A stretch of DNA of 64,000 nucleotides. It comes from Octopus vulgaris. Lineage: Eukaryota. The notes beneath the pieces are model-generated. The model made no database searches. It saw only the letters and a program-made list of their open reading frames with translations, and was not told the origin of the DNA. The translations under genes and the position numbers were made by a program. The DNA lies in NCBI GenBank assembly GCA_951406725.2, contig OX597835.1:11408001-11472000 (forward strand), written 5' to 3'. Positions 13,813-59,087 of the stretch are shown piece by piece; the first letter of the stretch is position 1, and every line of letters starts with the position of its first letter.

Positions 13813-14479
13813 AAAAATTTTATTTCGTAATGAGATAAAAAACCAAGGCTGTGTAGATTTTAGAATATTTATGGATAGAAGGTCTTACAGCTGTTTTCAA
13901 GATATTTATTATATACCTTCATTGGAGATGGTGTGAGAGGATGTTTAAGAAATAGGTAATTTAGATAAGATATAAAATAGAGAGTGAGGTGGAAGAAATA
14001 AAAGAAAATAGATGTGAGATATGTAGGGATATTGCATTTGTAGATCCATTTTTTTAGACAGAATGGTATACATATAAGATTCAAATACCTTATGTGTAAA
14101 ATCCAATTGAATTTAAAATTGGTCATTTCAAGTATGTATGAACTGTGTATAAACTCTATACTTGGAATGACCAATTTTAAATTCTATTGGATTTTACTCA
14201 TAAGGTATTTGAATATTATGTGTATACCATTCTGCCTAAAAAAAATGGATCTACAAATGCAATATCCCTACATATCTCACATCTATCTTCTTTTATTTCC
14301 CCCCACCTCTCTCTCTATTTCATATCTTATCTAAATTAACTATTTCTTAACCATCCTCTCAAACCATGTCTGATGAAGGGATATAATAAATATCCTGGAA
14401 ACAGCTGTAATACCTTCTATCTATAAATGTTCTAAAATCTACACAGCCTTTGTTTTTTATCTCATAAATAAAATTTATA
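13813..14479. mobile_element. Fold-back element, about 320-bp arms, with hammerhead motif (Penelope-like)
   Basis: Arms about 13813-14135 and 14159-14479 are reverse complements; CTGATGA at 14370-14376 and GAAA-cagctg-TA at 14398-14409. Confidence 0.8.
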
Positions 14480-14569
14480 GACCCCGGTCGAAACCGTCCA
14501 ACCCGTGCTAGCGCGGAAAACGGACGTTAAACGATGATGATGATGATGATGATGATATATATATATATA

Positions 14570-14740
14570 TTGCAAAATACCTTAGGAATGAGAACCCTGG
14601 TTCGAAATTTCCAAGACAGCTGATGAAGGCTGGATGGTATATCAGCCGAAACGTTGTGTTAACAACAAACAAGATAAGGACAAATATCCGTCAAATGTAA
14701 ATAATGTAAATAATTCGTCATCTCTTAAATATAGAACTGT
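14570..14740 (+). mobile_element. Short hammerhead-bearing element between TA tracts (Penelope-like 3' end)
   Basis: gacag-CTGATGA-a-ggctg..cagcc-GAAA-cg-TT-gtgtt at 14615-14660. Confidence 0.7.
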
Positions 14741-15244
14741 AATATCTATCTATCTATCTATCTATATATATATATATATATATATCTTTAGGAATTTAGA
14801 AATGAACTGTAGACATACAGTATATATATTTTCCTTCTCTCAGATTTGTTTTAAATCCTCCCCCACCTTTTCCTTTGTTTTTCTTTTCTTTTACTTTTTC
14901 CTTCATAAATGCTTTCCTTCACCCTGTCACCTCCCTCACCTTCCCTCTCCCCCACCCCACTAAAAGATATAACCTACCCTCTTCTTGTGTTTGTATTAAT
15001 AAAACCTCAGATATAGAAAAAATTCTTCTAGAAAAAAGATATCCATATTGATTCATGAAATTAATTTTGGGGTTAATTAATCTCGGCATATACTCACAAA
15101 AAAAGAAAAAAAAACTATTTTACTTGAACATGTAAATAGAAAAGATATATTTTTCTACCAACTGATACAAGATAGAATGTTTACTCAATATTTTCCATTA
15201 CAAGTGTTGAATATCAAGTCTTATTTCAAAAGAAGTTTTGTAGA

Positions 15245-15638
15245 TTAGAAAATTACTATTTTTAAATCTCACGAGAGATTCAGCAACAGTACTTTGGAGT
15301 AACAATTATTTGCTAACATAACATGGCAATCCTGGTTTAGGATGAACTTTGCTGTAATTTAGCCCCAGGAGACATCGTCTCCAGCTGGCTATATGACATG
15401 ATCTGTGTCCTTATATTTTTGAACAAGGGAATCTAGCACCCCCACCTAGCTCAAAACAATATCTGTGTATCGCGTTCTGGGTTATTTCCCTTCATCAGCA
15501 CAGAATAATTGTTTGAAAATATAAGGACACAGATCATCTCATATAGCCAGCTGGAGATGATGTCTCCTAGGGATAAATTACAGTAACATTCATCCTAAAC
15601 CAGTACTACCGTGTTATGTTGGCAAAAATCTTTACTGC
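15245..15638 (-). mobile_element. Asymmetric fold-back retroelement with 12-bp TSD and hammerhead-like loop
   Basis: TSD aagttttgtaga at 15233-15244 and 15639-15650; arms about 15300-15426 and 15508-15636; minus-strand hammerhead-like motif at 15463-15503. Confidence 0.82.
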
Positions 15639-15881
15639 AAGTTTTGTAGAGTCTTAATGAATAAAACTAAAGATTTCAGACCAGAGAATAAAATGGATTT
15701 TTAGAAATAAAACTACACAAGGTTTTGTCAAATTGATTATAACTTCACCTGAGGCACTGTCACAATGAATAAAGTTTAATTCAAGTGATTCAAAACTATG
15801 TTATGGCTTCTCCTCATATTCAGGGTGCAGACAGTATTTGTTCATATGATGACCATCTTAGGACAAAAAATATAACTCCAT

Positions 15882-16263
15882 AGGCACAGGAGTGACTGTG
15901 TGCTAAGTATCTTGCTTACCTAACACATGGTTCCGGGTTCAGTCCCACTGCATGGCACCTTGGGCAAGTGTCTTCTACTATAGCCTCAGGCCAAACCAAA
16001 GCCTTGTGAGTGCATTTGGTAGACGGAAACTGAAAGAAGCCCGTTGTATATATATGTGTGTGTGTGTCTGTGTTTGTCCCCCCCACCATCGCTTGACAAC
16101 CGATGCTGGTGTGTTTGTGTCCCCATAACTTAGCAGTTCAGCAAAAGAGACCGATAGAATAAGTACTAGGCTTACAAAGAATAAGTCCTGGGGTCGATTT
16201 GCTTGACTAAGGGCGGTGCTCCAGCATGGCCGCAGTCAAATGACTGAAACAAGTAAAAGAGAG
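15882..16263 (+). mobile_element. SINE family B
   Basis: Full-length match to family B. Confidence 0.87.
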
Positions 16264-16450
16264 TTTTTATGTTTTGAGATATTTTCATCAAATTTGGGGC
16301 AGTTTGTCTTTATGACGTTCTGTTGGTCTTACTTGATAAATTCACCTTTGGCATCAATAACAACCTCCAAGCAACATCAGAACTGGCCACAGGCCTTCGT
16401 TATTATCTTCCATTTTAGACTACTATGCCATATGTCCGTGGGGATATGTA

Positions 16451-16500
<50 letters not shown>

Positions 16501-16514
16501 CATAGGCATATGTG

Positions 16515-16550
<36 letters not shown>

Positions 16551-16565
16551 TATGTATGTATGTAT

Positions 16566-16970
16566 ACTCTTTTACTCGTTTCAGTCATTTGACTGCGGCC
16601 ATGCTGGAGCACCGCCTTTAATCGAGAAAATCGACCCCGGGACTTATTCTTTTGTAAGCCCAGTACTTATTCTATCGGTCTCTTTTGCCGCACCGCTAAG
16701 TAACGGGGACATAAACACACCAGCATCGGTTGTCAAGCAATGCTTGGGGGACAAACACAGACACACAAACACATACACACACATATATATATATATATAC
16801 ATATATACGACAGGCTTCTTTCAGTTTCCGTCTACCAAATCCACTCACAAGGCTTTGGTCGGCCCGAGGCTATAGTAGAAGACACTTGCCCAAGGTGCCA
16901 CGCAGTGGGACTGAACCTGGAACCATGTGGTTGGTAAACAAGCTACTTACCACACAGCCACTCCTGCGCC
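16566..16970 (-). mobile_element. SINE family B
   Basis: Full-length reverse complement; inverted relative to 15882-16263. Confidence 0.88.
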
Positions 16971-17496
16971 TATGTATGTATATATTTGTGTGCATGTGTA
17001 TATATTTATGTATGTATGTGTGTAAAATCTCTCTTGATTCTGTTGAAATGTGTGTAGGCCCAGAAAAGGATGTTGTAAACAACTTAAAATTATGGGCATG
17101 AAAAGTTTCCATTCTCCTTATCAATATTATTAATATTACTTACTCTATGGAAATGTAAGTGTGTGTGTGTGTGTGTATTCATGTGACCAATGATCAGCCA
17201 GACTATTGGAGGTTGTTACACATGTGCATTGCATCATTTTTAGCTTTCAAATGATGCTACCTCATTGGCCAGGCAAGGAGGTCAACATCCCCACCCATGC
17301 CTAATTAGAAGGCCGTTCCATCACAGGGTTATCCGTTTACAGCTGAATGGACTGGGGCAACATAAAATGAAGTGTTTTGCTCAAGAACACAATGTGTTGC
17401 TCGGTCTGATGATTGAACCCACGATCACTAGATCATGAGTGCAATGCCCTAACCATTAGGCCAAGTGATTTCACATATATATGTGTGTGTTCGTTT

Positions 17497-18283
17497 ATAC
17501 TTGTTTCAGTCATTTGACTGCAGCCATGCTGGAGCACCTCATTTTGTCTATATGTGCATTTATGCATGCACACACACATTCTTTATAAGCCTAGTACTTA
17601 TTCTATTGGTCCTTTTGGCAAACTGCTAAGTTACAGGGATGTAAACACACCAACATCGGTTGTCAAGTGACAGACACAGAGACACAAGCACACACGCACA
17701 CACACATACAATGGGCTCCTTTCAGTTTCTGTCTACCAAATCCACCCACAAGGCTTTGGTCATTCCGAGGCTATAGTAGAAGACACTTGCCCAAGGTGCT
17801 ACTCAGTGGAACTGAACCCAGAACCATGTGGTTGGTAAGCAAGCTACTTACCACACAATCACTCCTGCACTTATATGTATGTATGCAAATATATTATACT
17901 CTTTACTCTTTTACTCTTTTACTTGTTTCAGTCATTTAACTGTGGCCATGCTGGAGCACCGCCTTTAATCGAGCAGATCGACCCCAGGACTTATTCTTTT
18001 GTAAGCCCAGTACTTATTCTATCGGTCTCTTTTGCCGAACCGCTAAGTAACGGGGACATAAACACACCAGCATCGGTTGTCAAGCAATGCTAGGGACACA
18101 CACACAAATACACACACGCATATATATATATATATATACATATATACGACGGGCTTCTTTCAGTTTCCGTCTACCAAATCCACTCACAAGGCTTTGGTCG
18201 GCCCGGGGCTATAGCAGAAGACACTTGCCCAAGGTGCCATGCAGTGGGACTGAACCCAGAACCATGTGGTTGGTAAACAAGCT
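17497..18283 (-). mobile_element. Two consecutive SINE family B copies
   Basis: 17497-17870 (decayed) and 17897-18283. Confidence 0.85.
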
Positions 18284-19185
18284 ATGCATATATAATGTCT
18301 ATATGACAGATAAAATATTTTGTATTTCTATGTGTGTCTGTGTGTGCATATATGCATGCATACTCTCACACACACGCACATATATCTAAGTTTATCTGTG
18401 TGTGTGTGTGTGTATCTACATCTATGAAGATCAATGTATGTGTGTGTGTTTGCGATGAAATATCTTTAGTTTCCAATTAAGTGTCTCTACTTTGATTGAA
18501 GTTTTCTCTTTGAAGCAGGCTGTAAATTCAAAACTGTATTTAACAAATTAATTTATTAAATATAATGAAACAAATACTTGATAAATTATATATATATATA
18601 TATATATAAAAAAAAAAAAGCTATTGGTTTCTTCTATTGACTTTTCATGGTCCCCAATTTTTCCTTATTTTTCTAGTTTTATTATTGGAAATATTGTGCT
18701 GATTTTAAAGACACTTATTTTATTATTTAAACTACATTATTACAATTTTTATTTACAATATTACTCCCAAATTTAATAAGCCATGTTCGCAAACCTTGGG
18801 AAATCATCATTTGTGTTTTTGAAGCTGAAAGTAATTTAGAAAATGGAATCTCTATTTAACTTGTAAATCATTGTAAAGATTAGATTATTTTCATGTCACA
18901 TTTTCATGGTGCCTTTGTACACTGACTTTTATTCAGCCCAGCAGGATTTTTGCACTATCAGTGAATGTATTATTCAGTGTTTGCTGTCTGTGTCACTGGG
19001 GATAAATTTATCTCAGCATGTTGTGAATGAGTTATTGCCATTGACAAGGCACAAAGTACCAAACGTATTTGATGCTCTTGTGAATCATTACTGAGTTTAT
19101 CTTCACCTCATTCCAATATACATTGTGTTTTTAACATACGATACAAAGAAACAATCCTGCAGATAAAAGCCACAGCATGAGGCTT

Positions 19186-19417
19186 AGTAACTTTTAAGCA
19201 TTCAGTTTACTCTATCAAATGTAATGCTTATTTATTCACCTTGTTCTGAATTAATCATGCATTATTATTACTTGGTTGCTTCAAAATTCAGATGATGTGA
19301 TTGTTTATTTTTAGAATAACATTGTAAAGTAGACGTAGGAGGCCAAATCTGACTGATTTGAACATAAAACATTGAATATTTGAATTAGATATGATTCGTT
19401 TAAATGCCAAAGGGTTA
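19186..19417 (+). mobile_element. piggyBac-like MITE, decayed
   Basis: Ends in aatgccaaagggtta; the interior is shared (inverted) with 19610-20246 and 27795-28427. Confidence 0.6.
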
Positions 19418-19609
19418 CTGATGTACATATTTTAAGTATGGTACATAGATGACTTTGTTAAAAGGTCAGTTCTTGGTCTCGAGCAATTTAGATAAATGTA
19501 TTAGTCCAACCCATGCCAGCATGGTAACTGAACACTGAATGATGATGTATTTATGTAGTGAGAGTTATGAGAACGAACTAATGTATCTGACAACCTTTTA
19601 GACCACAAT

Positions 19610-20246
19610 TTTTAACATTTAGACTGACCACACCTGGCCGAAATATTCTGTTTTATGCTAAAACTGGCCACACCTACCTTACAATGTCATTCTAAAAATA
19701 TATTTCTTTACTACCCACAATGGGCTAAACACAGAGAGGACAAACAAGGACAGACAAACATATTAAGTCGATTATATCGACCCCAGTGTGTAACTGGTAC
19801 TTAATTTATCGACCCTGAAAGGATGAAAGGCAAAGTCTACTTCGGCGGAATTTGAACTCAGAACATAGCGGCAGACGAAATACCTATTTCTTTACTACCC
19901 ACAAGGGGCTAAACACAGAGAGGACAAACAAGGACAGACAAACAGATTAAGTCGATTATATCGACCCTAGTGTGTAACTGGTACTTAATTTATCGACCCC
20001 GAAAGGATGAAAGGCAAAGTCGACCTTGGCAGAATTTGAACTCAGAACGTAACGGCAGACGAAATACCGCAAAGCATTTTGCCCAGAGTGCTAATGTTTC
20101 TGCCAGCTCACCGCCTTTTGTCATTCTAAAAATAAGCGATCACATCATTGAAATCTCAAAGCAACGACATAATGCATGATTAATACAAAACGCTAAATGA
20201 ATAAGAATTGCATTTGACAGAAAAAATCTGAATACTGAAGGGTTAA
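19610..20246 (-). mobile_element. piggyBac-like MITE interrupted by a SINE C dimer (19701-20118)
   Basis: agggttaa end at 20246; the SINE dimer is flanked by the 16-bp TSD tgtcattctaaaaata (19685-19700 and 20119-20134). Confidence 0.75.
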
Positions 20247-22458
20247 TAGAGGTTCCCTGGTCAATACTTGTAACAAAATCTTTTGAAATTACCAGAAAAT
20301 AACAATGCTATAACATTTTAACATTTTCAATAATATAAATCAATGATTTGCGTATGAGAGTTTATTTCAGTGTTACTCAATATATTGTTTTCCTATTTAT
20401 TATCATGTTTAAAGGATTTCTTTAAATTTTCAAGCTTCTCTAGATATTGTAAGTTTTGTCAAATTAAGACAACTTCTGTGGACAGTGATTCTGGCATTTA
20501 AATACTTAAATGTAAAAATTTAACTTGTGTAATATTTGGAACTTGATGGCTTGCAAGAGATCTAGATATGGGAATAGATGTAAAATAAAAAGTGACAGAG
20601 CAAGCTTACTGTTGGACGAAAAGTAATTGATGGAAGCAGATGTGGAGAGAGAGAGAGAGAGAGAAAAACAGAGATAAAAGAAAGAAAATGAGAGACAAAG
20701 AAAAAGGATAATGGAAAATAGAGAAAATAATAAAGAAATATAAAAACAAGAGAATGACAAAAATAAAAACAGATAATGAGCAAACAGTAAAAATAAGATG
20801 TGGAAGATGGAACAAGATGCAAGAGTTAGGTTGTGTAGTAGTGAGTCTTCTCAAATTAAGATGCTGTAATTTCATTACTATCTACAGATTATTCTTTGGC
20901 TGAGTTCACTAGTAACTTTGTGAATATCCCAACATTAAGTAGAACGGACATCATTGTTATTTTAGTAACATTCTAGCTGTCTTATTAATTCTGTTGCATT
21001 AAATCATCAATGATGATGATGTTTACGAGACGGCTACAACTAACTTTTATGTTAGGTTTGTTGAAACACTTGTAGTTGTCTAACTCTGGTCAAGCAAACA
21101 TATAATCAGACATTTTTTCTATGACCATCCAACACATCCTTTGTTTGTTTGTTTGTTTGTTTTTCTTTTTTTTATGAGCATGATTCAAGGAAGGTTTTGG
21201 CTGTTATTTTTAGCAGAAAATTATAAGAATGACTAGAATGAACTGAGAACAGATTTTATTGAAACAAATGACACAATGCCATCATTTTGGAAAAATGACT
21301 GTAGAGTTTTTTTGTGTGTGTGTATAATATAAATCTCAAAATACATGGAGTGCTTTATTTTTCTGAATCTATCAGCAGTACCACACACCATATATATACA
21401 TTGTTCAAATTTACAGAAAACAAAAGATGAAGACAGGTGTAGGAACACCAAACAGGTGTATTAGTTTAATTTGTGGAGATTATATATGATGTAACAGCCA
21501 CTTTTTCATGCTTGCTTAGGTTAGAGGGAATTTGTTAAGACAAATTTTCAACAGCCAGAAGCTGTTGCTATTCCATATAAGGAAATATTTCCTTATATGG
21601 ATATATAAGTGGTCAAATAGGTTTTTATAGAAACAAATGACATCACTTGTCTGATGGTACTGCACATGTACAAACATCACACTGTCAGGACAAGGGTACA
21701 CATACCCCCCACTCCACGCATATACAAAAGGCTTCTTTCAGTTTCCATATGCCAAATCCCATTCATAAGGTTTTGATCAGTCCAGGACTGCAGTAGAAGA
21801 CATATGCCCAAGGTGCTGTACAGGGAACTGAACCTGAGACCTCACTTCTCTACACCTATATCATATATGTATCATCATCAGTTAACATCCACCTTCCATG
21901 CTGGCATGGGTATATATATAGTGTACACACACACATGCAATATATATGACATTCCATCCTGCTTGTTAATTACCATGTACAAATAAATTATGTATATGTA
22001 GCAATGGCCAAATGGCTAGGGGCTGCATTTTGCAACCATGAGATCCTAGGTTCAATCCCACTGCATGGCACCTTAGGTAGATGTCATTTTCTTTAGCCTC
22101 AGCTCAACCCATAACTTGCATGTGATATTGGATAGAAGGAAACTGTAGAGAACCCTGGCAGGTGTTAAATTTACCTGTAATTCGAAAGGTACAACCTGAG
22201 AATTATGTTAAAGATTTCATGTACCTGTGGTATACACAGCCAGTTACATGTTATTTCAGGAGCAGCACAGATGATTGCATAACTGAATCCCCATTGTTGA
22301 ATGATAGAGATCACCCACCATGACCATCACCACTGTGATATACACAACATGAGAGAGAAAAGAAAGGGATAAATAAATATGCATGGCACCCACATACTCA
22401 AATATACAGACTTTGATCGAAATTGACGAATTATGAGAGGAAACAAAAAATTAAATGT

Positions 22459-22803
22459 TCTGGGTTCAGTCCCACTGCGTGGCATCTTGGGCAAGTGTCT
22501 TCTGCTATATCCTCAGGCCGACCAATGCCTTGTGAGTGGATTTGGTAGACGGAAACTGAAAGAAGCCTGTCGTATATATGTATATATATATATGTATGTG
22601 TCTGTGTTTGTCCCCCTAGCATTGCTTGACAACCGATGCTGGTGTGTTTATGTCCCCGTTACTTAGCGGTTCGGCAAAAAAGACTGATAGAATAAGTACT
22701 GGGCTTACAAAGAATAAGTCCCGGGGTTGATTTGCTCGACTAAAGGCGGTGCTCCAGCATGGCCGCAGTCAAATGACTGAAACAAGTAAAAGAGTAAAAG
22801 AGT
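22459..22803 (+). mobile_element. SINE family B, 5'-truncated
   Basis: Family B body and gtaaaagag tail. Confidence 0.87.
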
Positions 22804-23125
22804 ATTAAAATGGTTGAAACTGAAGAAAAATATGTAGAGTTAAAAAGTTTGGAGTTTTTTGTAAAATAAATCAATAAGAATAAGGAAGGGAAAAAATTTG
22901 GATTTCGGAAAGTTATTTTGATTGGTTCCGATTAGACACGTCTATGAGACTTTGTCATTTTCCACGAGTTGCCGGAATTAAGTTATAGCAGCATGGTTTA
23001 TAACAGCACCAGTAGAATGACACAAAAACACCAATGATTGATACAATTATAGAAATGATACTAAAAATAGGAGCCAGTGAGAAGGCTTTTAGATGGTTAT
23101 TCTGCTTCCTAGAAATAACAGCTAA

Positions 23126-23520
23126 TCATCATCATCATCATTATCCTCGTTTCATGTCTGTTTTTCCATGCTAGCATGGGTTGGATGGTTCAACTGGGGT
23201 CTGGGAAGCCAGGAGGATGCACCAGGATCCAGTCTGATCTGGCAGTGTTTCTACAGCTGGATGCCCTTCCTAACGCCAACCACTCCATGAGTGTAGTAGT
23301 TGCTTTTACGTGCCACCGGCACAGGTGCCAGACGAGGCTGGCAAACGGCCACGATGGGATGGTGCTTTTTACATGCCACCGGCACAGGGGCCAGAGGAGG
23401 CTGGCAAACTGCCACAATCAGTTGGTGCTTTTACGTGTCACCAACACAGACGCCAGTCAGGTGGCGCAGGCATCAGCCACATTCAGACAGTGCTTTTTTA
23501 CGTGTCACCTGGAGCACACA
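23126..23520 (-). mobile_element. Retroposon family D (RTE-like 3' end, (GAT)n tail)
   Basis: Reverse complement of ...ggaagggcatccagctg...ccaacccatgctagcatggaaaa..(gat)n, with internal subrepeats. Confidence 0.75.
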
Positions 23521-23907
23521 CTGCAAGGTATCCAGTCTATGATGTTCTTCCTGCTCCACCGATTTACCACATTGTGGAGGCACATGGCCTAGTGGTTAGG
23601 GTGTTGGATTCATGATTGTAGGATTATGGTTTCAATTCCTGGACTGGGCGACACGTTGTGCTTTTGAGCAAAACACTTCACTTAACATTGCTCCAGTCCG
23701 CTCAACTGGCAAAAGTGAGTAATTCTGTGAGGGACCGGCATTCTGTCCAGGTGGGGAGTATATACACCATGGAAAAAACCAGGAAACTGGTCCTTATCAA
23801 TCCTTACAACTCAAGAAGGAAGCTTTACCTTCACTACTTCACCACACTGGATTATTAATTATCTTTTTAAATTGCTGAAAGGATGGAAGGTAAAGATGAC
23901 CTTAGAG

Positions 23908-24284
23908 CAGTGCTGGATTAACCATTAAGCAAATAAGCATATGCTTAGGACATGAAGGGAGGTAGGGCACCACAAAAATGGTAAATGGTCTACGGCACAA
24001 AAGAAATCACTGTAAACTTGTTGAAATAATATTCAAAGTGGCTGATATGATCGGAAATATAATTTCAAAGTGTCATAGAGAGGATCTGATTAAAGACTTT
24101 GCAATTAAAAAAAAAAAAAGTAGAAAACGTGGCTGTGTGGTAAGTAGCTTGCTTACCAACCACATGGTTCCGGGTTCAGTCCCACTGCGTGGCACCTTGG
24201 GTAAGTGTCTTCTACTATAGCCTCCGGCCGACCAAAGCCTTGTGAGTGGATTTGGTAGACAGAAACTGAAAGAAGCCTGTCGTA

Positions 24285-24329
<45 letters not shown>

Positions 24330-25136
24330 ATGTGTTTGTGTGTCTGTGTTTGTCCCCCTAGCATTGCTTGACAACCGATGCTGGTGTGTTTATGTCCCCG
24401 TTACTTAGCGGTTCGGCAAAAGAGACCGATAAAATAAGCACTGGGCTTACAAAAGAATAAGTCCCGGGGTCGAATTGCTCGATTAAAGGCGGTGCTTCAG
24501 CATGGCCGCAGTAAAATGACTGAAACAAGTAAAAGAGAGAGAGTAAGAGTATAAATAAAGTGAAAATATACAGAAATAAATATTATTTTCCATCTTACTG
24601 TTAGTTTTGTTCCATTTTGAAAAATTAAAATTTATTTTCTGGTTTATCATTGTTTATATTTTGAATGACGTGTATACGCACACACACACACACACACACA
24701 TATATTTTTTTTTCTCTCTTTGTTTCTCTCCTTGTTTTTTTTCTGTGTATCTTTCTGTCAAAGAGCGTAGGCTCGAAACGTAAAAGACTTGTTCTATTTC
24801 TATTCCTGAGCGCCATACTAATACAATTGTTTGTTTGTACTCCACCTGCCTTCATCTTTTGTTTATTTTGTAAACCTTCCTGTTCATCATCATCATCATC
24901 GTCGTTTAACGTCCGTTCTCCATGCTAGCATGGGTTGGACGGTTCGACCGGGGTTCTGGGAAGCCAGAAGGCTGCACCAGGCTCCAGTCTAATCTGGCAA
25001 TGTTTCTACAGCTGGATGCCCTTCCTAACGCCAACCACTCCGTGAGTGTAGTATTTTTCTGTTATATATATATATATATAGGGGCACCGAAATTTTTTAA
25101 GTGCTTGGGGCCTCTGTGAGTTTTAACCTCACTCTG
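23908..25136. mobile_element. Decayed hAT-like MITE carrying nested insertions
   Basis: cagtgctggattaa...ttaacctcactctg; imperfect 8-bp TSD ccttagag/cctcagaa; it splits a SINE C remnant. Confidence 0.5.
24129..24549 (+). mobile_element. SINE family B
   Basis: Near full-length family B. Confidence 0.88.
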
Positions 25137-25565
25137 CCTCAGAAGGATTTGAACTTGGAGCACACAGTGTTAAAACAAATATAAAACATTCTGCGGTGAC
25201 AGTCCAACAGCCCTACCAATTCCTCACCTAAACCGAACGCTCCATTGTTGATAACAATCAAGATCCATTTACAGACACTTCTGCAGACTCCGTATCGATA
25301 TTTACACTCAGAGATGCCAGTAACATTGCACTTTATGTACTCTTGTTTATTTCTTTAGTTTTGAAATCATAGACTAATTCTGCAATTCTAAGCAATGACC
25401 TGATGTCAACAGATTCATATATGTTTCCGATTCCTGCCTTATTTTACCTGTTATTAAATCATGACTAAAATTGACACCTGTCACTGATAATGGCCTTGAA
25501 ACTTCATACCTTTGGAAATTAATCTGAAATAAACAGAAATCAATTTTGTTTTCAATTCATTTCAG

Positions 25566-25656
25566 AATCACTAAAAGCAGTCTGCCATTGTTTTTTGGCA
25601 TCTCAGAATATTGTTCGTCATAATTTCGAGGTGGTTGAGAAGCAGAAACTCGAGCG
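25566..25656 (+). CDS. INPP5F: Penultimate coding exon of SAC2
   Basis: tttcag| acceptor and gagcg|gtaagc donor; 91 nt, phase 1 to phase 2. It joins both neighbours in frame: (E)SLKAVCHCFLASQNIVRHNFEVVEKQKLE(R), compared with vertebrate DTLQCIAEML...IIEKKLER. Confidence 0.9.
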
Positions 25657-26002
25657 GTAAGCCAACACTTCTCTATAAACACTTTTGTTTTTTTCTTGTC
25701 AAGTGTGAAAATCTGATATTACTTCCTGTTCACCTTTCCACCTTTTTTTTTTTTCTGGTTTTGCCTCTATTTTTTTTTCCCTCCAGGTTTATTTATCATT
25801 GAGATTTTTTTCCTTCCTACATGTCATTTTTCAACTGAAAGTTTAGTATTACAGTACTGTATGCCAGTGAAACAATCAATTCCATTGTGAAACACACCTC
25901 AGTTAGCATTACCTGTCTCTGAGCAATTTCTAACTTAAAAGTAAGCCAGGTGTTGCATAAACGTTTTGTGTCCTGGTGGATGTTTTGGTCCACTTCCTAA
26001 AA

Positions 26003-30920: not shown

Positions 30921-32789
30921 CATTGTTTATATCTATGCATATATAGACACGCTGCGTTTTGATGTTGTTCATTATTACTTTGTTAAATGTCGTTATATTG
31001 TGAATTATAATCACCTCTCCGCTGGTTAGTGGTTGCTGGTAAGTTTTCAACCATGAAAAATTTAGATGTTTAGGTAAAATACTCTTAGGAATATATGCAT
31101 CTATTAATTAAAAATATAAAATAAAATAAAATGAAGAAAAATCTGACGCAAAGGATATAAATATTTAAAACTTTTTAGAGAAGTTGTTATGGTATCAACA
31201 CAAGGTGTAATTAATACCAAAACTTGAGGACTCCACGGAAAAAAAATACATTGTAATTAGATATCATCATCATCATCATCACTACTGTCACCAATGACTA
31301 TCTTCTGCATCCTAGTCTTCTTCCTCTTCCTCCACATCTTTGTCAGAATCATTTGAGCATCAAACAAACTGCCTTGTGATGTATTTTTTGGTTTATTTTT
31401 CTAGTTCTTTATATTCAAGGTTCAAATCCTGCTGAAGTCATCTTTGCTTTACTTCACTCTCAAGTTGATAAAATTTAATTAAATCTTAATCATGTACTGT
31501 CAACATGACTCGCCATTCTTTTGTCATCATCCTCATCATCATCATCATCATTTAATATCTGTCTTACATGCTGGCATGGGTTGGATGGTTTGGTAGGAGC
31601 TGGTAAGGCCAGGAGCTGCACCAGGTCCCATAGTCTGTTTTGATATGGTTTCTATAGCTGAGTGCCCTTCCTAATGCCAACCACTTCATAGAACATACTA
31701 AGTGCTTTTTATGTGGAACCAGCACCTGTACTTTTTATTGGCTCCAGCAATTAATAAAAGTTTAAATCAAGTATTAATCATGAACTGGTGTGGATATAAT
31801 CAACCAACTCTCTCCTAAAATTCCAAACCTTGGACTTACATTAGAAAATTATTTTGTCTTTATTGTTATTCCACATTTTTATCGTTGCACACAGATTGGT
31901 AACATTCTGTATTTTGTTTTGGTAGTAGTTCTTTTTTTGTATTAAATCTATTCAACACAATATGTGCATATACAGGGCTTAGCAGGACTATTTTATATAC
32001 AACAATACTTTGATTAATCACCTGTTTAATTATACATCAATTTTATGTGTTAGAAATTTTACAAAAATAAAAACTTAATTGCACAAAAATAATTGCTTTA
32101 AAAGTTTAACTACCCACAATGCACCTTGATAATGTGCACGTGAGTGTCTGTTCATTCATTTCATTTCAGGTAGTTTGCATGTTGACATTTTGTGCATTTA
32201 CCGATTTTTCCCATTCTCTCTGCCACTCTTTCATCTTAAAACTTTTGAATTTATTCATCATGAATTTATTCAAACTCTATAAAAAAAAAGCTGAAGAATA
32301 ATCTGACAATGGAAACTGCTGCTGATTTCTTTCCTCTGTAAGGAATTGAAGACTTTCTCCGCATTCAAAGAGCAATTGAAATTTTCTAGTTTCAAGAATC
32401 AAACTTCTAACAAAGAAGGAAAGTTGCTGCCAATCTAAATATATCTCCCATCTGTTGTCAAGAATTCTGCAAACAAAAGACTTTCATAGAAACAGTGGCC
32501 TCCTTCACAACCTGGGATGATGTCTGGTTGAGCGTTAGATTCTTTGACTCAGTGAATTTGGTTCAAGCCTGTATCACTTGTTTTGCTTTTATGCCAAAAT
32601 GTTAAAGAATAAATAAATATAATTATTATTATCAGAGCATTGGCCTGGCAGAAGTATTAGAGCGCAAGAAAAAAAAACTGCCTTGCTGTATTTGGTTTCG
32701 CTTTTTATGTTCCAAGTTCAAATCCTGCTGATATCAAATATGCATTTTGTTCCCCCTGCCACCCCTGTGTAATGCTGAAAATATTTAAA

Positions 32790-33234: not shown

Positions 33235-34417
33235 CATGAAGGTGAAACCACACCCTGGAGTGATTGACATTGGGAAACAGTTACAAGAAACATCGTTGGC
33301 TGCCATTAATCTTCCTAGAAATGTATCAGAATCAAGTCTCAATGAAACAGAGGAAGAAACTGAAAAACAACTTCCTAACCAACACCAGGGTCATGGTTTC
33401 TTCCGATCTCCCAAGTTTTCCTTAAACACTGAAAGCAACATTCACAAGGGAGATCTCTCCAACAAGCTTGGCCTCCCTCTCAAAGGAACATCCCTTCAAC
33501 TACCAAAGCTGAACCTACATAACCTAAATCCCATCAAAAATGTGAACCTTAAATCTTTGCGACTTCCAACTGTATTCTACAGTAATAAAGAAACTAAATC
33601 GAGTATGGAACGTCTGACCATTAATACGGAACGTTCTGGTGAGGAGGTTTCTGATTCAAGTAATTCATTGAAACACTTGCCTCCTGAAGGAGCTGGGAAT
33701 CTGCCTCGGTCATCAGACACGGATGTCGTGAGCAACAAGAACCTTCTGGATATGACTCAAGATGAAAATACGGACGTAATGTTCCGAAGCTGTGGCATTT
33801 TAGCAACTAACCCTAAACAGCTCTTTGTGACATCTTTGAGTCTTTCTTCTGATGTTGATCCCGAAGAATTACCTCAAGAGATTTCAGCTGCCATCGATGA
33901 AGCAAGAAAACCTGATGCAACAGATCAACTCAATAATTTGCTCAGCTTAGATTTAGTTTCCTCTGAGTCTGAAATAGAAAACTCCAGAATGGCCCTTAAT
34001 AATAAAACAGAACAGGAGAGCTTTATGAGCAACATTCCTGACACTTATGCCAATTCTTATCCAGCTTCCATCCGTGATGATTACGATGACAATAATTATG
34101 ATCACTTTAATTGTGGTGACGCCTCGACTGAATTTGCAGAACATTCTAGAGACACGTCGAACCAACGAAGGAGACCCTTACCTTTGAAACCTTCCTTCAG
34201 TGATGGTGCAATTAGTTCTCATCCCGATATGAATACTTATCCTGATCTGCAAAAACCACTGCTGTTATTGGAAAACAATCCTTTCACAAAAATTGGCCAG
34301 AAAATCCAATCAAGCATGTCCCGAAGCTCTTCGAAAGCAACTGTCGATCTATTGAAAGAACAGGTTTTAGAGAAATTGAAGGATAGGGAATGTGAAACTC
34401 AAATTATATTTATATAA
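33235..34417 (+). CDS. INPP5F: Terminal coding exon of SAC2 (about 393-aa, largely low-complexity C-terminal tail)
   Basis: Long poly-T tract plus tgcag| acceptor, phase 2 (cg+c = Arg). It begins MKVKPHPGVIDI (cf. KSSKPHEDIIGI) and ends NPFTKIGQKIQSSM...CETQIIFI* (cf. SPFARIRSSM...CQTRIIQI*). Confidence 0.92.
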
Positions 34418-36722: not shown

Positions 36723-36922
36723 AGTAAAGATTATTTGCCAACATAACATGGCAGTCCTGGTTTAGGACGAATATTGCTGTAATTTAGCCCCAGGAGGCCT
36801 CATCTGCAGCTGGCTATATGACACGATCTGTGTACTTATATATGTTAGCAAATAATCTTTACTCCAAAGTACTGTTGCTGAATATCTCTTGTCGTGAGAT
36901 TTACAAATAGTAATTTTCTAAA
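36723..36922 (+). mobile_element. Centre-deleted copy of the 15245-15638 fold-back family, inserted into SINE C
   Basis: 13-bp TSD gcatttc(a/g)tctgt at 36710-36722 and 36923-36935; same arm sequences and ends as the 15-kb copy. Confidence 0.8.
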
Positions 36923-37675: not shown

Positions 37676-37843
37676 TATGAAAGAATGGAGTTGAACAACT
37701 AGTTAACAAATATCCTTTATTCTCGACATGTTTCGAAGGCTGCATATTCCTAATTCCGAAGTTCTTTCTAATGTGAATTTGCTACCCAGATATCGGTTAT
37801 CTTTCGAATTATCCTTAATAAGATAATTCATTCAATTACTCAA
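37676..37843 (+). mobile_element. Centre-deleted copy of the 48451-48905 fold-back family
   Basis: Retains the inverted 5' arm (with GAAA-catg-TC on the minus strand) joined to the 3' tail gtgaatttgctacccag...; flanked by (TA)n. Confidence 0.75.

Positions 37844-38369: not shown

Positions 38370-38400
<31 letters not shown>
37844..38400. repeat. (TA)n(CA)n compound microsatellite
   Basis: Alternating TA and CA blocks. Confidence 0.96.
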
Positions 38401-39469
38401 CTTTATGTAAAAGCAGCAGAAATATAACAAAAGCTGTTACTCAGAGTTTCATGTTCCCGTTCATTGGACAGTTTTGTTAAAATGGGACAGAACTAACGCT
38501 ATAATCAAAACTAGTTAAAGAATACACCTTCAAAAATGGATGTGCTTTCATGATCACAAGCTTGTATTAATAAATGATCAGTCCTGTTGGCTTTACCCCA
38601 GAAAATCTTCAGCCTGTTCCCAGCTGCTAAGTGGAGCCAGGCAATAAAGAATAAGCAGAGACCAAGGAACCCCACAAAACCCTAAGTTGTGGCTTTGAGA
38701 CATTTCGGCACAGCCGTTTCGGCACCACTTATTTGGCACTATTGCATCGATGCTGACTTACTTGACATCAGACATTTTAATGTTTTCTTTCATTCTGTTT
38801 GTTTATGCCTGTCCACATATATCTCTCTTTGTGTTTGAGAAGAGGAAAACTTTATTCCAATCATGTTCAATTTATAAATTATAATGCAATTCTCTCTCTC
38901 TCTGTATATTCTTCATACACATGCATGTATTTGTGTATGTGTTTGCTTCCAGTGCCAAAAAAGTACTATTGCCAAAAACAGGCTTATTATCCAGTAAGCC
39001 ATGCCAAATTGACAGCAGCCAAACAGCTGTGCCCATTTGTCTCATTTCATTAGTTACTAACCACTCAAGTGACTCCCCATCATAATAGAACATTATTCCA
39101 GGTTTATGAAAATGTATTACAAATGTAGATATATTAAAAGTCTTTGGAATACATATTGAATAAAAGAATATGGTACGTTTTAGATGTTACAATAAAAAAA
39201 AAAAAGAAAATGGTTTGTATTTTCTTCAATCCCAGTTATTTTAGCATTTTGAGGAATTCTTTGATATCAACAATAATATTACCAGTTTTACCTTTGCTTT
39301 CTTTCGGTATCTCATGCTAGGATCTGAAGTGAGTACCAAACTGTTTGATCTAATATAATATATTAAGAGAACAGTCAGCAATGCCAACCTTTCACCCCTA
39401 CATTGTACATGTCCTTCATGGACAGGGTGGGATTCTCCAAAATAATATTGCTTCTGAGAGCGGCTGACT

Positions 39470-48450: not shown

Positions 48451-48454
<4 letters not shown>

Positions 48455-48901
48455 GAATAAATGAAAAGAATGGAGTTGAACGAAGATTTTATCAAAATTC
48501 CTTTACTTTCGACATATGTTTCGAAGACTGCATATTCTTAATTCTGAAGGAATGAAGGTTGCATTATGACGTCTTCTCATCAGGAAATACAAGGAACCTC
48601 TATCAGCCTCAAGACGTCTTGAGGCTAATAGAGGTTCCTTGTATTTCCTGATGAGAAGATGGCATAATGCAACCTTCATTCCTTCGGAATTAAGAATATG
48701 TCGAAAGTAAAGGAATTTTGATAAAATCTTCGTTCAACTCTATTCTTTTCATTTATTCGTATAAAAAAACACACAAATTTCCACACACGAACACGGGGTT
48801 CAGCCCTTGGCATGTAACTTCAACCATGTTTTACTGAAGTGAATTTGCTACCCAGGTATCGATTAACAGAATTATCCATACTAGGATAATTCATTCATCT
48901 A

Positions 48902-48905
<4 letters not shown>
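48451..48905 (+). mobile_element. Asymmetric fold-back element between (TA)n tracts (Penelope-like)
   Basis: Loop-less palindrome centred at 48615/48616 (aagac|gtctt), arms to 48451 and 48763, unpaired 3' extension to 48905. Confidence 0.85.
48504..48590 (-). ncRNA. Type-I hammerhead ribozyme, intact core
   Basis: tttc-CTGATGA-gaagac[42 nt]gtcttc-GAAA-catatg-TC-gaaa: all core nucleotides, stems I and II, palindromic stem III and a GUC cleavage triplet are present. Confidence 0.82.
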
Positions 48906-48963: not shown

Positions 48964-49269
48964 TTTAGAGATAGGATGCCCCTTCATCCCACCATATAAA
49001 AGAATTTTAATTTAAATACTTACCGAGATATAAGTAGTAAGTATTTAAATTAAAATTCTTTTTTATGGTGGGATGAAGGATCCTACTATCTCTAAATGAA
49101 AATATATATTTCTTCATTGAGAATAATTTGAACCCCTTTTATGCCGGAATTTGTATTCCCTAACAAATAAAATTTAAATATATATATATATGTATTTATA
49201 TATCTTTATAATTAAGGATAAAATCTATATCATATTTTATCAAGTAGCCACTATGTAATAAACCACCAT

Positions 49270-49565: not shown

Positions 49566-50367
49566 GCACAGGTTTCATAACTACAATTTCCATTTGATTT
49601 TTATTTTGATGTACTTGACTCAATAGGTCTCCTCAAGCACAGCAGGTCGCCCTATGATCCAAGGTAAGCACAGCAGGTCGCCCTACAATCCAAGGTACTT
49701 TAAATGGGGTGGGGTTGGTTATGTGAAGCTGATGTAGGATACGTGGTGGACTCACTTTATTTGTCGGGTCTTCGCAGTCACAGCATATCTCCAGAGGGTT
49801 CTCAGGAGGAAGTGGCAGAAGGAATGGGGACTCCTCCTCCTCCAGTCAAACCATATAGGTAGCAATACAATATATGATTTTTTTAAATATAATTATAGTA
49901 AGGTCACTAATGAGTAGCACTTAATGCTAGAAATAGACACTAAACTACATTATTTACCAATGTGGTAAATAATGTAGTTGTTAGAGTCATTTGGCATCTA
50001 TTTCTAGCATGTGGTACTATTCATTGGTGCCCTTACTATAATTATATTTATGTAATTATATTTTTTGTGTGTGTATGTGTATATATTTATGTATGTATGT
50101 ATATATAGTTATAAATAAATGTAGAAGTATGTGTATATATAGTTATAAATATAGATGTATGTATATAGCTATAAATATGTGTGTGTGTATACATATATAT
50201 ATATATGTAGTTATATTATCTGGTAATTGATATTTGATTTAGATGTATTTCTCCATTTTCTTATTTTGTATACATAGTTATAAATAAATATATATAGTTA
50301 AATAAATATATATATATGTAGTTATATAAATATATATACATAGTTATAAATAAATATATATAGTTAA

Positions 50368-50407: not shown

Positions 50408-50837
50408 ATAAATATATATACACACATGGGATAAAATTAAAACCTGTCAATAAGTAAAGCGCTAAGTAAATCTTGGGCTTGGATAAAATGTAATCCCAGT
50501 TGAGTCATGAATAAAAACCAAAACTAAGCCAAAACTTGCCCAAGTCAGCACCTGTATTGAGTACTTTTATGTTTTGGACCAACTGACACATTGGTAGGGG
50601 ACTACTGAATCACAGACCTCTTGTTCAATGTAAATTAAATATTCCACTCTACTTTGGTATTGAGTACTTCTGTTAGTAATGGATGGATAGATTTGTGTGT
50701 ATGTATGTATGTGTGTGTGTGTGTGTATATATATATACACACACATCGTATTTGATGGCCTATGTACCCAAAGATCGGTCCCAGTAGTTGGTTGCACACT
50801 TCACTTCAATATCCATGTCCTATAATGCATCCCGTCT

Positions 50838-51273
50838 TGTTTGAACCAAGCTTTGAAGAAAAAAAGACCTGCATTGGTGAATTGAAAAGGAGTGATGTTT
50901 CATCAGGACAATGTGCGACCCCACACCGCAAAGATCACATCACAGAAGGTCAAAGAACTTGGTTGGGAAAAAATTCCTCATCCACCTTTTTCCCCTGACC
51001 TTGCTCCTTCAGACTACCATTTGTTTCATAGTTTACAAAATCATTTGGGGACATAACTTTCGCAAGCCAGGAGGAGGTCGAAACTGACATTTCAGAGTTT
51101 TTTGCTTTGAAACCAAAAGAGTTTTACAATGATGGGATTAAAAAGCTTGTAAATAGATGGAAGTAAGTCATAGATATTCAGGGAAAGTACATTGATGATT
51201 AAATTTCAATTAAATATAACATTTAATCACTTGTTTTCCTTATTCAAAATTCAGACAGAACTTATGGGATGAC

Positions 51274-51278
<5 letters not shown>
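50838..51278 (+). mobile_element. Mariner transposon 3' half (D,D34D catalytic region plus right TIR), pseudogenised
   Basis: KKRPALVN*KGVMFHQDNVRPHTA...LGWEKIPHPPFSPDLAPSDYHLF; ends cttatgggatgacctga followed by TA. Confidence 0.92.
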
Positions 51279-51315: not shown

Positions 51316-51317
<2 letters not shown>

Positions 51318-51579
51318 CCGGAGTAAACACATAAATGTGAAACAAGGTGGAAAAAAGAGTACTCAAATACCAGTGGTAGAGTAATATGCTTTATTTAAAG
51401 CAGCAGAAAATTCAACAAAATCTGTTGCTCTGAGTTTCTCGTTGCCGTTCATCAGATAGTTTTGTTAGAATGGAACCGATATATCAATTTATATATCGGT
51501 TCCATTCTACTGTCTGATGAACGGCAATGAGAAACTCAGAGTAACAGATTTTGTTGAATTTTCTGTGCTTTAAATAAAG

Positions 51580-51582
<3 letters not shown>
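51316..51582 (-). mobile_element. Asymmetric fold-back element with a hammerhead motif on each arm
   Basis: Arms about 51384-51484 and 51491-51582; + strand ctgt-CTGATGA-acggcaatga-GAAA-ctcagag-TA-acag at 51510-51547; flanked by (TA)n. Confidence 0.82.
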
Positions 51583-51614
<32 letters not shown>

Positions 51615-54258: not shown

Positions 54259-54498
54259 AATCATTTGGGGGACATAACTTTCGCAAGCCAGGAGCCAGTT
54301 GAAACTGACATTTCAGACTTCTTCGCTTTGAAACCGAAAGTGTTTTACATTGATGGGATTAAAAAGCTTGTAAATAGATGGAAGTAAGTCATAGATAATC
54401 AGGGAAAGTACATTGAGGATTAAATTTCAATTAACATAACATTTGATCACTTGTTTTCTTTATTCAAAATTCGGACAGAACTTATGGGATGACCTGAT
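54259..54498 (+). mobile_element. Second fragment of the same mariner (3' end plus TIR)
   Basis: Near-identical to 51039-51278. Confidence 0.88.
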
Positions 54499-54754
54499 TG
54501 TTGACACACTATGCATTTCTGATTAATAATTTTGATTTTAATTTGGAAGTGTCACGAGTATGCAGCACTGATAAACTGCAACAATGGTGAAATAGGGTAT
54601 CTGCTGCTCGCATGTTCACTTCAGGGGCAATTTCGTTTCACAAATATCTGAAGTATATTGTCTTTTTCTTTTTTTTAACACTATGCATTTTTGAAGAGAC
54701 TTTTCCTGGGTGGAAAACCACAGCTTGTCATTTAAGCAACACATATATGTATTA

Positions 54755-55550: not shown

Positions 55551-56980
55551 AGAATAAAATGCTTTTGATAGTATGCAGAATAATATATTTGTAATAATAA
55601 TGATGATATTAGTCTCAAGAAGTGGAGGAATTATTGTTCTTTATTCATATCTAGGTAGAGAAGTTTTCAAATTTTTTAAGCTAATGAAAGGAAAAGAAAT
55701 TTAATGGAATGAAATGAAGTCAAATATAATGGAATAAAATTACATCATTACATTTAAGAACTTATCTGGTATTTGCAAATACTTAGTAGACAACAATTTC
55801 TTAAAATGTAATGACATAAATCTTATTTTATTTTTCTTTATACCATTACATTTCAATTCCTTAGGAAATTTGAAGAATTTCTCTAACTCTATACAAATAA
55901 GTTAAGAAATAATTCCTTCAGTTTCTTTTCTGTTTTTTTTTTTTTAAACTAACCGTATTATTACTATTATTATTACTAGTGTACTGAATACATTTTTACA
56001 TACACATGCACACGCACACATTTTTATAATAATGTACATATAATATAAAATACATTATATTCTCATACTCACACATTTTTGTGTGTGTGTGTGTATTATA
56101 TATATTTGTGTGTGTGTGTATATATATAATATATAGAGGGCACTATTACACATAGATGCCTCACGCTATGAGGGACTCTTAAAGTCAAAACTACTTGATA
56201 AATTCTTATGAAGATTTTATCCTATCTTTAAATTGTAAATTTTAAATTATATATATATATATATATAGCCAATAAGAAAGTGGAGGGGATACAAAATAGC
56301 ATATGTCATTTTGTAACCTCTCCATTCTCTTATTTGCCGTATAAATTAAGGGTAAACCACTTTTTACCCCTGTCCATATATTACACTCAATTGTGAGATT
56401 GCCACACAATAACCAGCACTTGGGTATGAATAACTTGGGTACACTACCAGCAGTATATTGGATAGGTACTATCCCTTTGTTGGTTTCCCAACCTCTAACT
56501 CACACAGAAATATATCAGAAAGGAACTCTATCTCTCTTAAAAAAATATCTTTTGATAAGCATAACAAATGCGCAACCGGTAAAAAGAACTTTCACCTAAT
56601 TAAATTACTTAAATTATTTTGTCAGCATTTTCTTCATTTCCTTTTTTTATATATCACAACTCGTGTTCCACATCTCCTTTTTTAAATATATATATATATA
56701 TATATTTTATCATTAATTAAAATCTTAGGGTAGCAAGAATATTTATCAAAAAAAAATTCTTAGTTACCAGTGGTCTAGGGGGAAGGGGAAAAAAATCTGC
56801 AGAAACCTTGCAAGGTCTAGGATTAAGGTAAAAGTTTTTTTTATTTTTCTATCACTTTCGGAATTACAACAATTAGTGGCTTGGAGTTTAACTGCTCTTT
56901 CTAGTGAGTCAGATACCCTATTTTTCGGGGTATCTCTTTTGTGTTTGAATGTACACTGCATTCTTCTCTCTCTATCTCTT

Positions 56981-57021
<41 letters not shown>

Positions 57022-57042
57022 TACATACATACATACATACAT

Positions 57043-57079
<37 letters not shown>

Positions 57080-57649
57080 TACATACATACATATATATAT
57101 ACATACACACAAGTATGTGTATATATTCGCATCCTAGTGACATTTGGAAAGCTGTTGGATGACAGATGAGACTAAAATTGTTTTCGTCACCAAAGAGCCT
57201 TGTTTTACTGCAACCTTTAAACTTAAAAATATTTCATATGAACTTCAATCAATAGACTGCATTGCACCCTTTATTCTATGGCCCATGGTGTATTTTGTGG
57301 AGAAAAAAATCCCCCAAAACATAAAACAATGGCATAATAATATATTAAAAGTAACTGTGATGGGAACTGTCATCACTTAATTGTTGTTGTTGTTGTTGTT
57401 GTTGTTTATTGAAAGGAAATTGTGTTTCATTTATTTCATTTATGTACCCTCCCCACCACCACGACCACCACCACCCCCACCAAACTATACTTTGTTATAT
57501 TTCCTACTCCTTCCTCCTTTCTTTTTTTTTTTTTTTTTTTTTGTAACATTGGTAATGACATGATTTAAATAAATGTTGGAATTCTTGTTCTGACTTGTTG
57601 ACTGAATCCAAATGCATTTATATTGTTCTTCTCTCTGCATGCTGCTCAC

Positions 57650-57664
57650 ACACACACATTATAC

Positions 57665-57697
<33 letters not shown>

Positions 57698-58240
57698 TAG
57701 ATATATACATATACACATATATATATATACACATACATATACACACATATATACATATACACATATATATATATACACATACATATACACACATATATAT
57801 ATATACATATACACATATATATATATATACATATACACACATATATATATATATACATATACACATATATATATATGCATATACACATATATATATATGC
57901 ATATACACATATATATATATGCATATACACATATATATGCATATACACATATATATATATGCAAATACACATATATATATGCATATACACATATACATAT
58001 ATGCATATACATATATACATGTACACATATACATACACATATGCATATACACATACACATATACACGTATGCATATGCAGACACACACACACTCACATAC
58101 ACACACACACATATATATATACATATACATATATACACATACACGCATACACATACACACACATATATACACATACACACACATGCACGTACACACACAC
58201 ACACACACATAAATATATACATATATATACACACACACAG
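57650..58240. repeat. TA/CA compound microsatellite
   Basis: Low-complexity tract that generates spurious HI/YT ORFs. Confidence 0.95.
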
Positions 58241-58327
58241 GAATGAGCAAACAAACACGCATACAGGATCTTGTTCATATTAACATGGGAAAATATAGAT
58301 TTGAAATCACAAAACAGTTTAAGGACA

Positions 58328-59087
58328 AGGTTATCAGCCCGAATATGCTTGATGCCCGTTTGAACTGGGGAACAAGCTATTCACTGCGTTTTGTCACACA
58401 GAATATATCCTGCTTCTTGACAAATGGTGTGTATACACCTAGATCAGCTAACAGCGCTATCTACCTAGACTGTGAGATGTTAACATTTCAGAGTAGTTAC
58501 CTCCTCATCAGTCACAGACTCTAAGCAGATGGCACTGCGAGCTGAATTATGAGATTGCCTCTCTGACACTTTTCCAGACACTGTACGGTGGCTCACCATA
58601 AGTAAATTACTGTACAGTGACTGGAAAAGCATAAGAAAGGTAATCTCTTAATTCAGCTCGCAGTGCCATCTGCTTAGTGTGTCTGTGATCAATGAGGAGA
58701 TAACTACTCCGAAATGTTAACATCTCATAGTCTAGGTCAGTGCTTTTCAAACTTTTTGCTGGAGCAGAACCCCAAGGAAACATTCCACTGGCTCGAGGAA
58801 CCCCTGTGCAATAATTTAATAGTCTTATGCACACATATCTGCACAGGAGAATTAAAAATTATTGCCGATTTTAGCAGTTTTGTAACTTCTTGCGGAACCC
58901 CTGGAACCCTAAGGTTCCGCGGAACCCTGGTTGAAAACCACTGGTCTAGGTAGATGGTGCTGTGAGCTGATCTAGATGTATACACACCATTTGTCGACAA
59001 ACAGGATATATTCTCCATGACAAAACACACTGAGTAGCTTGTTCTCCTGTTTGAACATACGTTGAGCATGTTCAGGCTGGTAATAAC
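58328..59087. mobile_element. Fold-back element (arms of about 260 bp) with hammerhead-like motif, right arm interrupted by a hAT MITE
   Basis: Arms about 58328-58586 and 58609-59087 (excluding the insert); minus strand CTGATGA-ggag..ctct-GAAA at 58511-58486. Confidence 0.8.
58738..58943. mobile_element. hAT (Charlie/Buster-type) MITE
   Basis: TIRs cagtgcttttcaa / ttgaaaaccactg; perfect 8-bp TSD gtctaggt (58730-58737 and 58944-58951) with central TA. Confidence 0.9.

Follow-up and report, generated by a model that had tools for sequence, protein, structure and literature searches.

We analysed a 64,000-nt window of the Octopus vulgaris genome (assembly GCA_951406725.2, contig OX597835.1, positions 11,408,001 to 11,472,000 of the forward strand; coordinates below are those of the window), in which seven fold-back elements with hammerhead ribozyme motifs had been predicted to represent a class of non-autonomous mobile elements. 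We consider the hairpins to be one-off insertion products of several families of Penelope-like elements (PLEs), and not a new self-spreading class; the probability of this reading is put at about 0.83. Each hairpin likely consists of two shortened copies of a PLE 3' end, arranged head to head. Inverted arms, outward-reading hammerheads, one-sided tails, flanks made of a target-site duplication (TSD) or TA tracts, and outer ends that are fixed while junctions vary can all be seen directly in the DNA. The pattern is a known one, to which octopus examples are added here.

Fold-back elements and their hammerhead motifs

Self-alignment recovered inverted arms running from end to end in six of the seven predicted fold-backs, at 81–97% identity; the exception is the element predicted at 56268 (F below). 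The elements, lettered A to G, and the hammerheads of A and C are as follows ("unstranded" marks features given no strand).

13812–14479, unstranded: fold-back A; two arms of about 320 nt each, placed head to head and 92.1% identical; 22-nt unpaired centre; within an intron of the host gene SAC2.
14367–14412, plus strand: type I hammerhead of A; core intact, helix I of 3 bp, helix II of 7 bp, helix III palindromic.
15245–15638, minus strand: fold-back B; arms 88.7% identical; short arm at 15512–15638, 82-nt centre, long arm.
48452–48903, unstranded: fold-back C; arms at 48452–48615 and 48616–48763, 96.6% identical, with zero spacer; tail of about 140 nt at 48764–48903.
48507–48587, minus strand: type I hammerhead of C; intact, helix I of 4 bp, helix II of 6 bp with a long loop, helix III palindromic.
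49884–50050, unstranded: fold-back D; short palindrome, arms 88.7% identical, decayed hammerhead-like cores reading inward; an outlier.
51316–51585, unstranded: fold-back E; 70-nt tail at 51316–51385, arms of about 95 nt each at 51386–51582, 95.7% identical, with zero spacer.
56259–56690, plus strand: element F; TA-flanked, its hairpin limited to 88 nt of the left end (56259–56346, 79% identity).
58331–59083, unstranded: fold-back G; arms of about 260 nt, 81–89% identical; 25-nt centre; intact hammerhead on the minus strand at 58511.

In agreement with the proposal that the families are unrelated in sequence, no similarity above 3 standard deviations was found in the 45 pairs formed by ten arms. 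The architecture said to be common to them is not shared by D, which reads inward and has no helix I, or by F, which has no end-to-end arms. Centre lengths across the hairpins were 0, 0, 0, 3, 13, 22, 25, and 82 nt, and 75–91% of the bases of whole elements were paired in the predicted folds. Fold-back A adjoins another repeat fragment at 14479. Fold-back C, which belongs to a high-copy family and is bordered by TA tracts on both sides, has an 18-nt deletion in its right arm.

A search with a strict type I hammerhead descriptor returned two motifs in the window, at 58511 (G) and 48583 (C), both on the minus strand, both located in fold-backs, and both outward-reading. In 200 block shuffles the mean number of such motifs was 0.04, and two or more were found in a single shuffle. 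When preselected regions were compared with 100 shuffles using a looser score of our own, motifs at +14370 (A), −48583 (C), +51514 (E), −58511 (G), +14620, +24755, and +54568 exceeded all 100 shuffles. Weaker results were obtained for B (−15498, 3 of 100), D (+49907, 4 of 100), the element at 38401 (8 of 100), and F (+56552, 23 of 100). The intact or decayed hammerheads attributed to all seven elements are thus well supported in A, C, E, and G and weak in B, D, and F. The motifs of A, C, E, and G point outward, while the only one in B, which is decayed, lies in the unpaired centre and those in D read inward. Both arms of E carry a hammerhead (−51455 and +51514). The motif of A has an A.G pair at the base of helix II, and the core of its left-arm partner (−13925) is decayed; a decayed partner motif is likewise present in G near +58690. 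The motif of F at 56552 combines a U3-A8 type core with a changed A13 and a helix I of 2 bp. A search of Rfam gave no hammerhead in two short regions, nor among the best 150 of 278 rows for the window, a result to which little weight is given because the Rfam models miss minimal hammerheads of this kind.

A one-sided 3' tail, predicted as a general feature, was clear in three of the seven fold-backs (52 nt in B, at 15245–15297, as well as the tails of C and E listed above) and in two related elements at 36723 and 37676; none was seen in A or D, and no clear one in G. The flanks were also of more than one kind. A 12-nt TSD encloses B (15233–15244 and 15639–15650), and a TSD of 13 nt with one mismatch encloses the element at 36723 (36710–36722 and 36923–36935). 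TA tracts border C, F, and a fragment at 14570, and are found on both sides of E; neither TA tracts nor a TSD were found for A or G, and D has no TSD. The tail of B (15245–15300, minus strand) is predicted to form a stable stem-loop (z-score −5.0, 0 of 200 shuffles), which is retained with changes in the element at 36723, while the tail of E as a whole folds as shuffled sequence does (z-score −0.5). Two short stretches in 50540–50680 resemble the tail of E; 50620–50680 folds no better than shuffles.

Junctions between copies

Five further elements carry a single arm or have lost the centre.

36723–36922, plus strand: relative of B (87–89% identity); both outer ends the same, junction different; tail present; inserted in a dispersed repeat.
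37676–37843, unstranded: relative of C (80–82%); the distal tail follows immediately on 82 nt of inverted arm; flanked by TA.
38396–38491, minus strand: the element at 38401, a lone tail-less arm related to E (81%), with a decayed hammerhead at 38467.
14570–14745, plus strand: single arm between TA tracts; minimal hammerhead at 14620 with intact core and a broken closing pair of helix I.
24700–24885, plus strand: the fragment at 24710, a single arm; minimal hammerhead at 24755 with two core mismatches.

The first three were correctly predicted as centre-deleted or single-arm relatives, and all three are unlike their partner at the junction. The outer ends are common to B and the element at 36723 and the junction is not; the same is true of C and the element at 37676. 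The hammerhead core has been deleted from both of these relatives. The last two, predicted as hammerhead-only fragments, have motifs that are supported by the looser score given above. No TSD was found for the elements at 37676 and 24710. A short decayed relative of the 24710 fragment lies at 21410–21465, and one of the 3' part of F at 31114–31168.

Since a hairpin that moves as a unit would be expected to retain its centre, junctions were compared between copies. Contigs of four public runs (X1, X2, X4, and X10) were aligned to C at an identity of at least 85%, yielding 1,370, 1,923, 1,267, and 147 matches; only family C was compared in this way. In run X1, 11 of the 1,370 contigs track the C arm as far as 48616, which is one base beyond the axis, and from there share a non-palindromic continuation. 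Single pieces among those listed for X2 and X10 continue past the centre as well. Seven of the eight joints listed run across the centre; they all differ in position, and each is seen in one contig. None of the 32 pieces listed bridges the centre. Summed depth, which is not copy number, peaked on the distal tail for X1 and X2, and on the left arm for X4. Among the variants listed, none at a frequency of at least 5% fell on a catalytic position and seven fell in loop II; a common change at 48527, in helix II, was without a partner change.

Variable 5' truncation combined with fixed 3' ends is thus seen in family C and in the comparison of B with the element at 36723. The proposed class of non-autonomous fold-back elements is not supported by these comparisons, as family C continues past its centre without a recurring junction and all three within-window relatives differ from their partners. 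The term retrozyme-like does not suit the elements either, since no head-to-tail tandem of any of those listed was found in self-comparison. A fixed, self-spreading fold-back family, if true, would be a new non-autonomous form of PLE; family C argues against it.

Origin of the hairpins

The proposed link to Penelope is sustained by the design of the motifs, their outward orientation, the tail, the TA or TSD flanks, and the helices that E shares with an autonomous Hydra-clade PLE. Compared by eye, E and Hydra-2_Amil agree in 13 of 13 letters around one half of the core and in 17 of 18 around the other; the hammerhead lies 140 nt from the 3' end in E vs 129 nt in Hydra-2_Amil, and the tail hairpin is similarly built. 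The helix III pair of E is present in 5 of the 26 Hydra rows in the accessible supplement table of PMC8557442. PLEs make up 6.83% of the O. vulgaris genome, with 190 consensus sequences, and hammerheads are unmentioned in the accessible part of that study (Bonar et al. 2026, PMC13282606). The predicted density of about 10 elements per 64 kb is real, although it is only what a genome with this PLE content predicts: the seven named elements occupy 4.9% of the window, and all pieces summed, within boundaries of our own and with doubtful items included, 4,212 nt or 6.6%. No fold-back PLE class and none of these octopus families were named in the literature searched, subscription papers lying outside it. 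The O. vulgaris repeat library (Zenodo), also outside the search, may already contain these families. Two apparent resemblances to PLE proteins, one by eye between an inward frame of A and Naiad proteins and one over four residues between the upstream continuation of C and the end of a PLE open reading frame (ORF), were dropped and are not used as support.

By analogy with published PLE insertions, the hairpins may have formed as follows. A PLE reverse transcriptase (RT)-endonuclease would nick an AT-rich or (TA)n target on both strands, the nicks lying 12–13 nt apart at B and at 36723. Both 3' ends would then prime reverse transcription, a distal start site giving rise to the tailed arm and a proximal one to the tail-less arm. 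Both complementary DNAs (cDNAs) would stop 10–220 nt upstream of the hammerhead and be joined head to head by microhomology or filler, the hammerhead being a presumed passenger of the pseudo-long terminal repeat (pLTR). For the last step we lean slightly towards the joining of two cDNAs; snap-back self-priming of one strand is a tenable but less probable route. Microhomology or filler would account for centre lengths from 0 to 82 nt, and snap-back fits the zero-spacer cases equally well. Junction statistics from family C, with its thousands of short young fold-backs, could separate the two. The insertions, which have no ORF, are predicted to be inert. Cleavage is also predicted to be unlikely, because a read-through RNA has one sense hammerhead without a dimer partner, over which the arms would pair.

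Several observations weigh against an origin by PLE insertion. In A, D, and G neither a tail nor a TSD is evident, and the tails that are present (52–140 nt) exceed the published 30–40 nt. D reads inward; this element may be a miniature inverted-repeat transposable element (MITE) or a tail-to-tail product. None of ten window motifs occurs verbatim in the accessible supplement of PMC8557442, where line breaks may hide matches. No RT or GIY-YIG remnant was found beside the elements: of the read-through frames compared with Pfam, the 30 long ones matched no family and the 16 short ones none of relevance, and a 104-aa open frame of A had no match among 1.84 billion proteins. The negative for long frames is soft, since that search also missed a mariner remnant found in a short frame (E 0.009). 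As for family C, 4,697 pieces and 224 loose-end rows lie beyond those listed, and each joint comes from one contig, at 85% likeness and with sides measuring 21–49 nt. These unique joints could also be later deletions of hairpins. The dip in depth at the centre is not diagnostic by itself, because contigs break at palindromes and a dip is also present at 48736–48751.

The reading closest to the original prediction is that some families are true non-autonomous fold-backs, in which a fixed hairpin is transcribed and PLE proteins move it in trans. The very short, symmetric units of C and E with their zero spacers would suit it, as would the high copy number reached by families and the existence of other non-autonomous PLE derivatives, namely MRC1 (PMC8557442) and animal retrozymes (bioRxiv 10.64898/2026.07.22.740005). 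No local ORF was found, and the contig data from outside the window cover family C. We nevertheless regard this reading as unlikely, given the behaviour of family C at its centre, the different junctions in three of three relatives, and the head-to-tail organisation of the known non-autonomous forms (retrozymes and MRC1). In a narrower version, which is doubtful, one or more of the families other than C (D above all, perhaps A or G) would move in trans as a fixed hairpin, D being a rare tail-to-tail form, and the parents would carry a CCGAUGA (U4C) core that decayed at its CpG to CUGAUGA in one arm and CCAAUGA in the other. The arms of A and G differ by TG vs CA at core positions 4–5 (13925/14370 and 58511/58690). 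Double differences of this type affect 6 of the 152 TG/CA sites over all arm pairs, two of them at core positions 4–5, and the same decayed core word is carried by the element at 38401 (38467) and by D (49907/50027). The pattern, spotted post hoc, would follow from such a parental core and CpG decay, but no variant of this kind is seen in family C.

DNA-transposon MITEs, or chance inverted duplications containing fortuitous hammerhead-like words, are plausible mainly for D and for a further hairpin at 48965, and improbable as a general account. The ends of D match, it has inward motifs and no tail or helix I, and its score stands at 4 of 100 shuffles; the two short regions submitted to Rfam had no hammerhead listed. 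TA flanks fit mariner-type MITEs as well. The strict motifs (2 vs 0.04 expected) are hard to obtain by chance, however, and MITEs are ill-fitted by one-sided tails and TSDs of 12–13 nt, B, C, and E not being symmetric. Moreover, E matches a PLE, and the one MITE-like insert seen, inside G, looks different and has a TSD of 8 nt. Least credible of all is the insertion of a single PLE 3' end to which an inverted arm was added later through repair or template switching at the DNA level. In its favour, hairpins lack stability, and deletions of later date can be seen in C (right arm) and possibly at 36723 and 37676. Against such a sequence of events, the TSDs of B and the element at 36723 enclose both arms, both copies have a short arm that starts at one and the same position of the family, and among the loose ends of family C the short-arm end meets TA-rich flanks at one place. 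The insertion of two head-to-head PLE 3' ends in one event remains the preferred reading.

Genomic setting and comparison with known systems

The window has a G+C content of 35.6% and contains zero N. Its host gene and the remaining features are as follows.

7757–34417, plus strand: SAC2/INPP5F host gene; coding exons at about 7757–7900, 25565–25657 (tblastn), and 33239–34417.
48965–49180, unstranded: further hairpin, not on the first list; TA-flanked, 87.7% identity, with a right-hand extension; lies beside C.
54560–54610, plus strand: extra type I hammerhead-like motif, not on the first list; one core mismatch, helix I of 6 bp; outside the fold-backs.
58738–58943, unstranded: later, MITE-like insertion of 206 nt into the right arm of G; bounded by short terminal inverted repeats, with an exact TSD of 8 nt.

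The ORF at 33242–34414 shares 92% identity with SAC2 from Octopus bimaculoides. The placement of several elements in a host intron proved correct: A, B, and the fragments at 14570 and 24710 lie inside the SAC2 intron that extends from about 7900 to 25565. The other eight listed elements lie beyond the final coding exon of SAC2, on its 3' side, and the analysis turned up no host gene around them; a 70-aa frame at 48169 had no homologues, so that a second host gene is not established. Hairpins put long double-stranded stretches in introns such as that of SAC2, and these would be candidate sites of adenosine-to-inosine editing.

The hairpin at 48965–49180 had no convincing hammerhead. The insert in G is one that we take to be a hAT-like MITE. 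Mariner-like transposase remnants, 92% alike over 239 nt and with a weak match to DDE_3, were found at 50740–51276 and 54259–54496, and the extra motif at 54560–54610 lies directly 3' of the second remnant. Six 80-nt units, about 97% alike, are arrayed in tandem at 62271–62750, and all of them have the word CTGAAGA on the minus strand; as no GAAA follows within 70 nt downstream of this word, the array is not a retrozyme by descriptor. Beside A, a minus-strand frame at 13396–13740 without a Pfam match resembles, by eye, the end of a long interspersed nuclear element ORF.

By definition, animal retrozymes without long terminal repeats (non-LTR retrozymes) are tandems whose units follow one another head to tail, consecutive units having a hammerhead (bioRxiv 10.64898/2026.07.22.740005). 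The window elements resemble them in being non-coding, in the type I hammerhead, and in a probable origin from the PLE pLTR, but they are inverted pairs or singles and not head-to-tail tandems. Another parallel is offered by metazoan PLEs and their minimal hammerheads. Cervera and de la Pena (2014, PMC4209133) described dual minimal hammerheads 100–700 bp apart on opposite strands, which they ascribed to truncated PLEs, as well as motifs with an extra base after A9 and a U3-A8 core variant. A short helix I, an extra base between positions 9 and 10.1, a palindromic helix III, and opposite-strand pairs 100–700 bp apart all recur in the window, where F represents the U3-A8 variant. The window motifs differ in the 40-nt loop II of C and in that most copies are decayed.

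Among PLEs, the Hydra clade (Hydra-2_Amil, Penelope-13_HM, Hydra-1_Obim) shares with the window elements a preference for (TA)n and a 4-bp palindromic helix III. E is like Hydra-2_Amil in the letters of helices I and III and in the spacing to the 3' end, a likeness to the clade seen by eye in one element. The clade itself is set by RT phylogeny and an endonuclease without an internal CCHH, while the likeness here is that of the hammerhead alone, with no coding sequence. Penelope-13_HM is listed with hammerheads on both strands (PMC8557442).

Insertions of endonuclease-containing (EN+) PLEs provide the nearest counterpart. Craig et al. (2021, PMC8557442) described an inverted, 5'-truncated copy, a one-sided tail of 30–40 bp, and a (TA)n bias, and stated the mechanism of inverted PLE insertions as open. 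Head-to-head palindromic junctions with TSDs of 8–10 bp were reported by Arkhipova et al. (2013, PMC3846280), who proposed snap-back self-priming for rotifer elements, and a purified anole Poseidon protein cleaves and extends both strands in vitro, with two RT start sites (PMC11167929). The octopus elements depart from these insertions in having copies too short for an ORF, longer tails (52–140 vs 30–40 nt), and longer TSDs (12–13 vs 8–10 nt). They share with them the head-to-head inverted copy (A, B, C, E, and G; not D or F) with its palindromic junction, the tail at one end, the TSD or (TA)n target, and the hammerhead near the 3' end.

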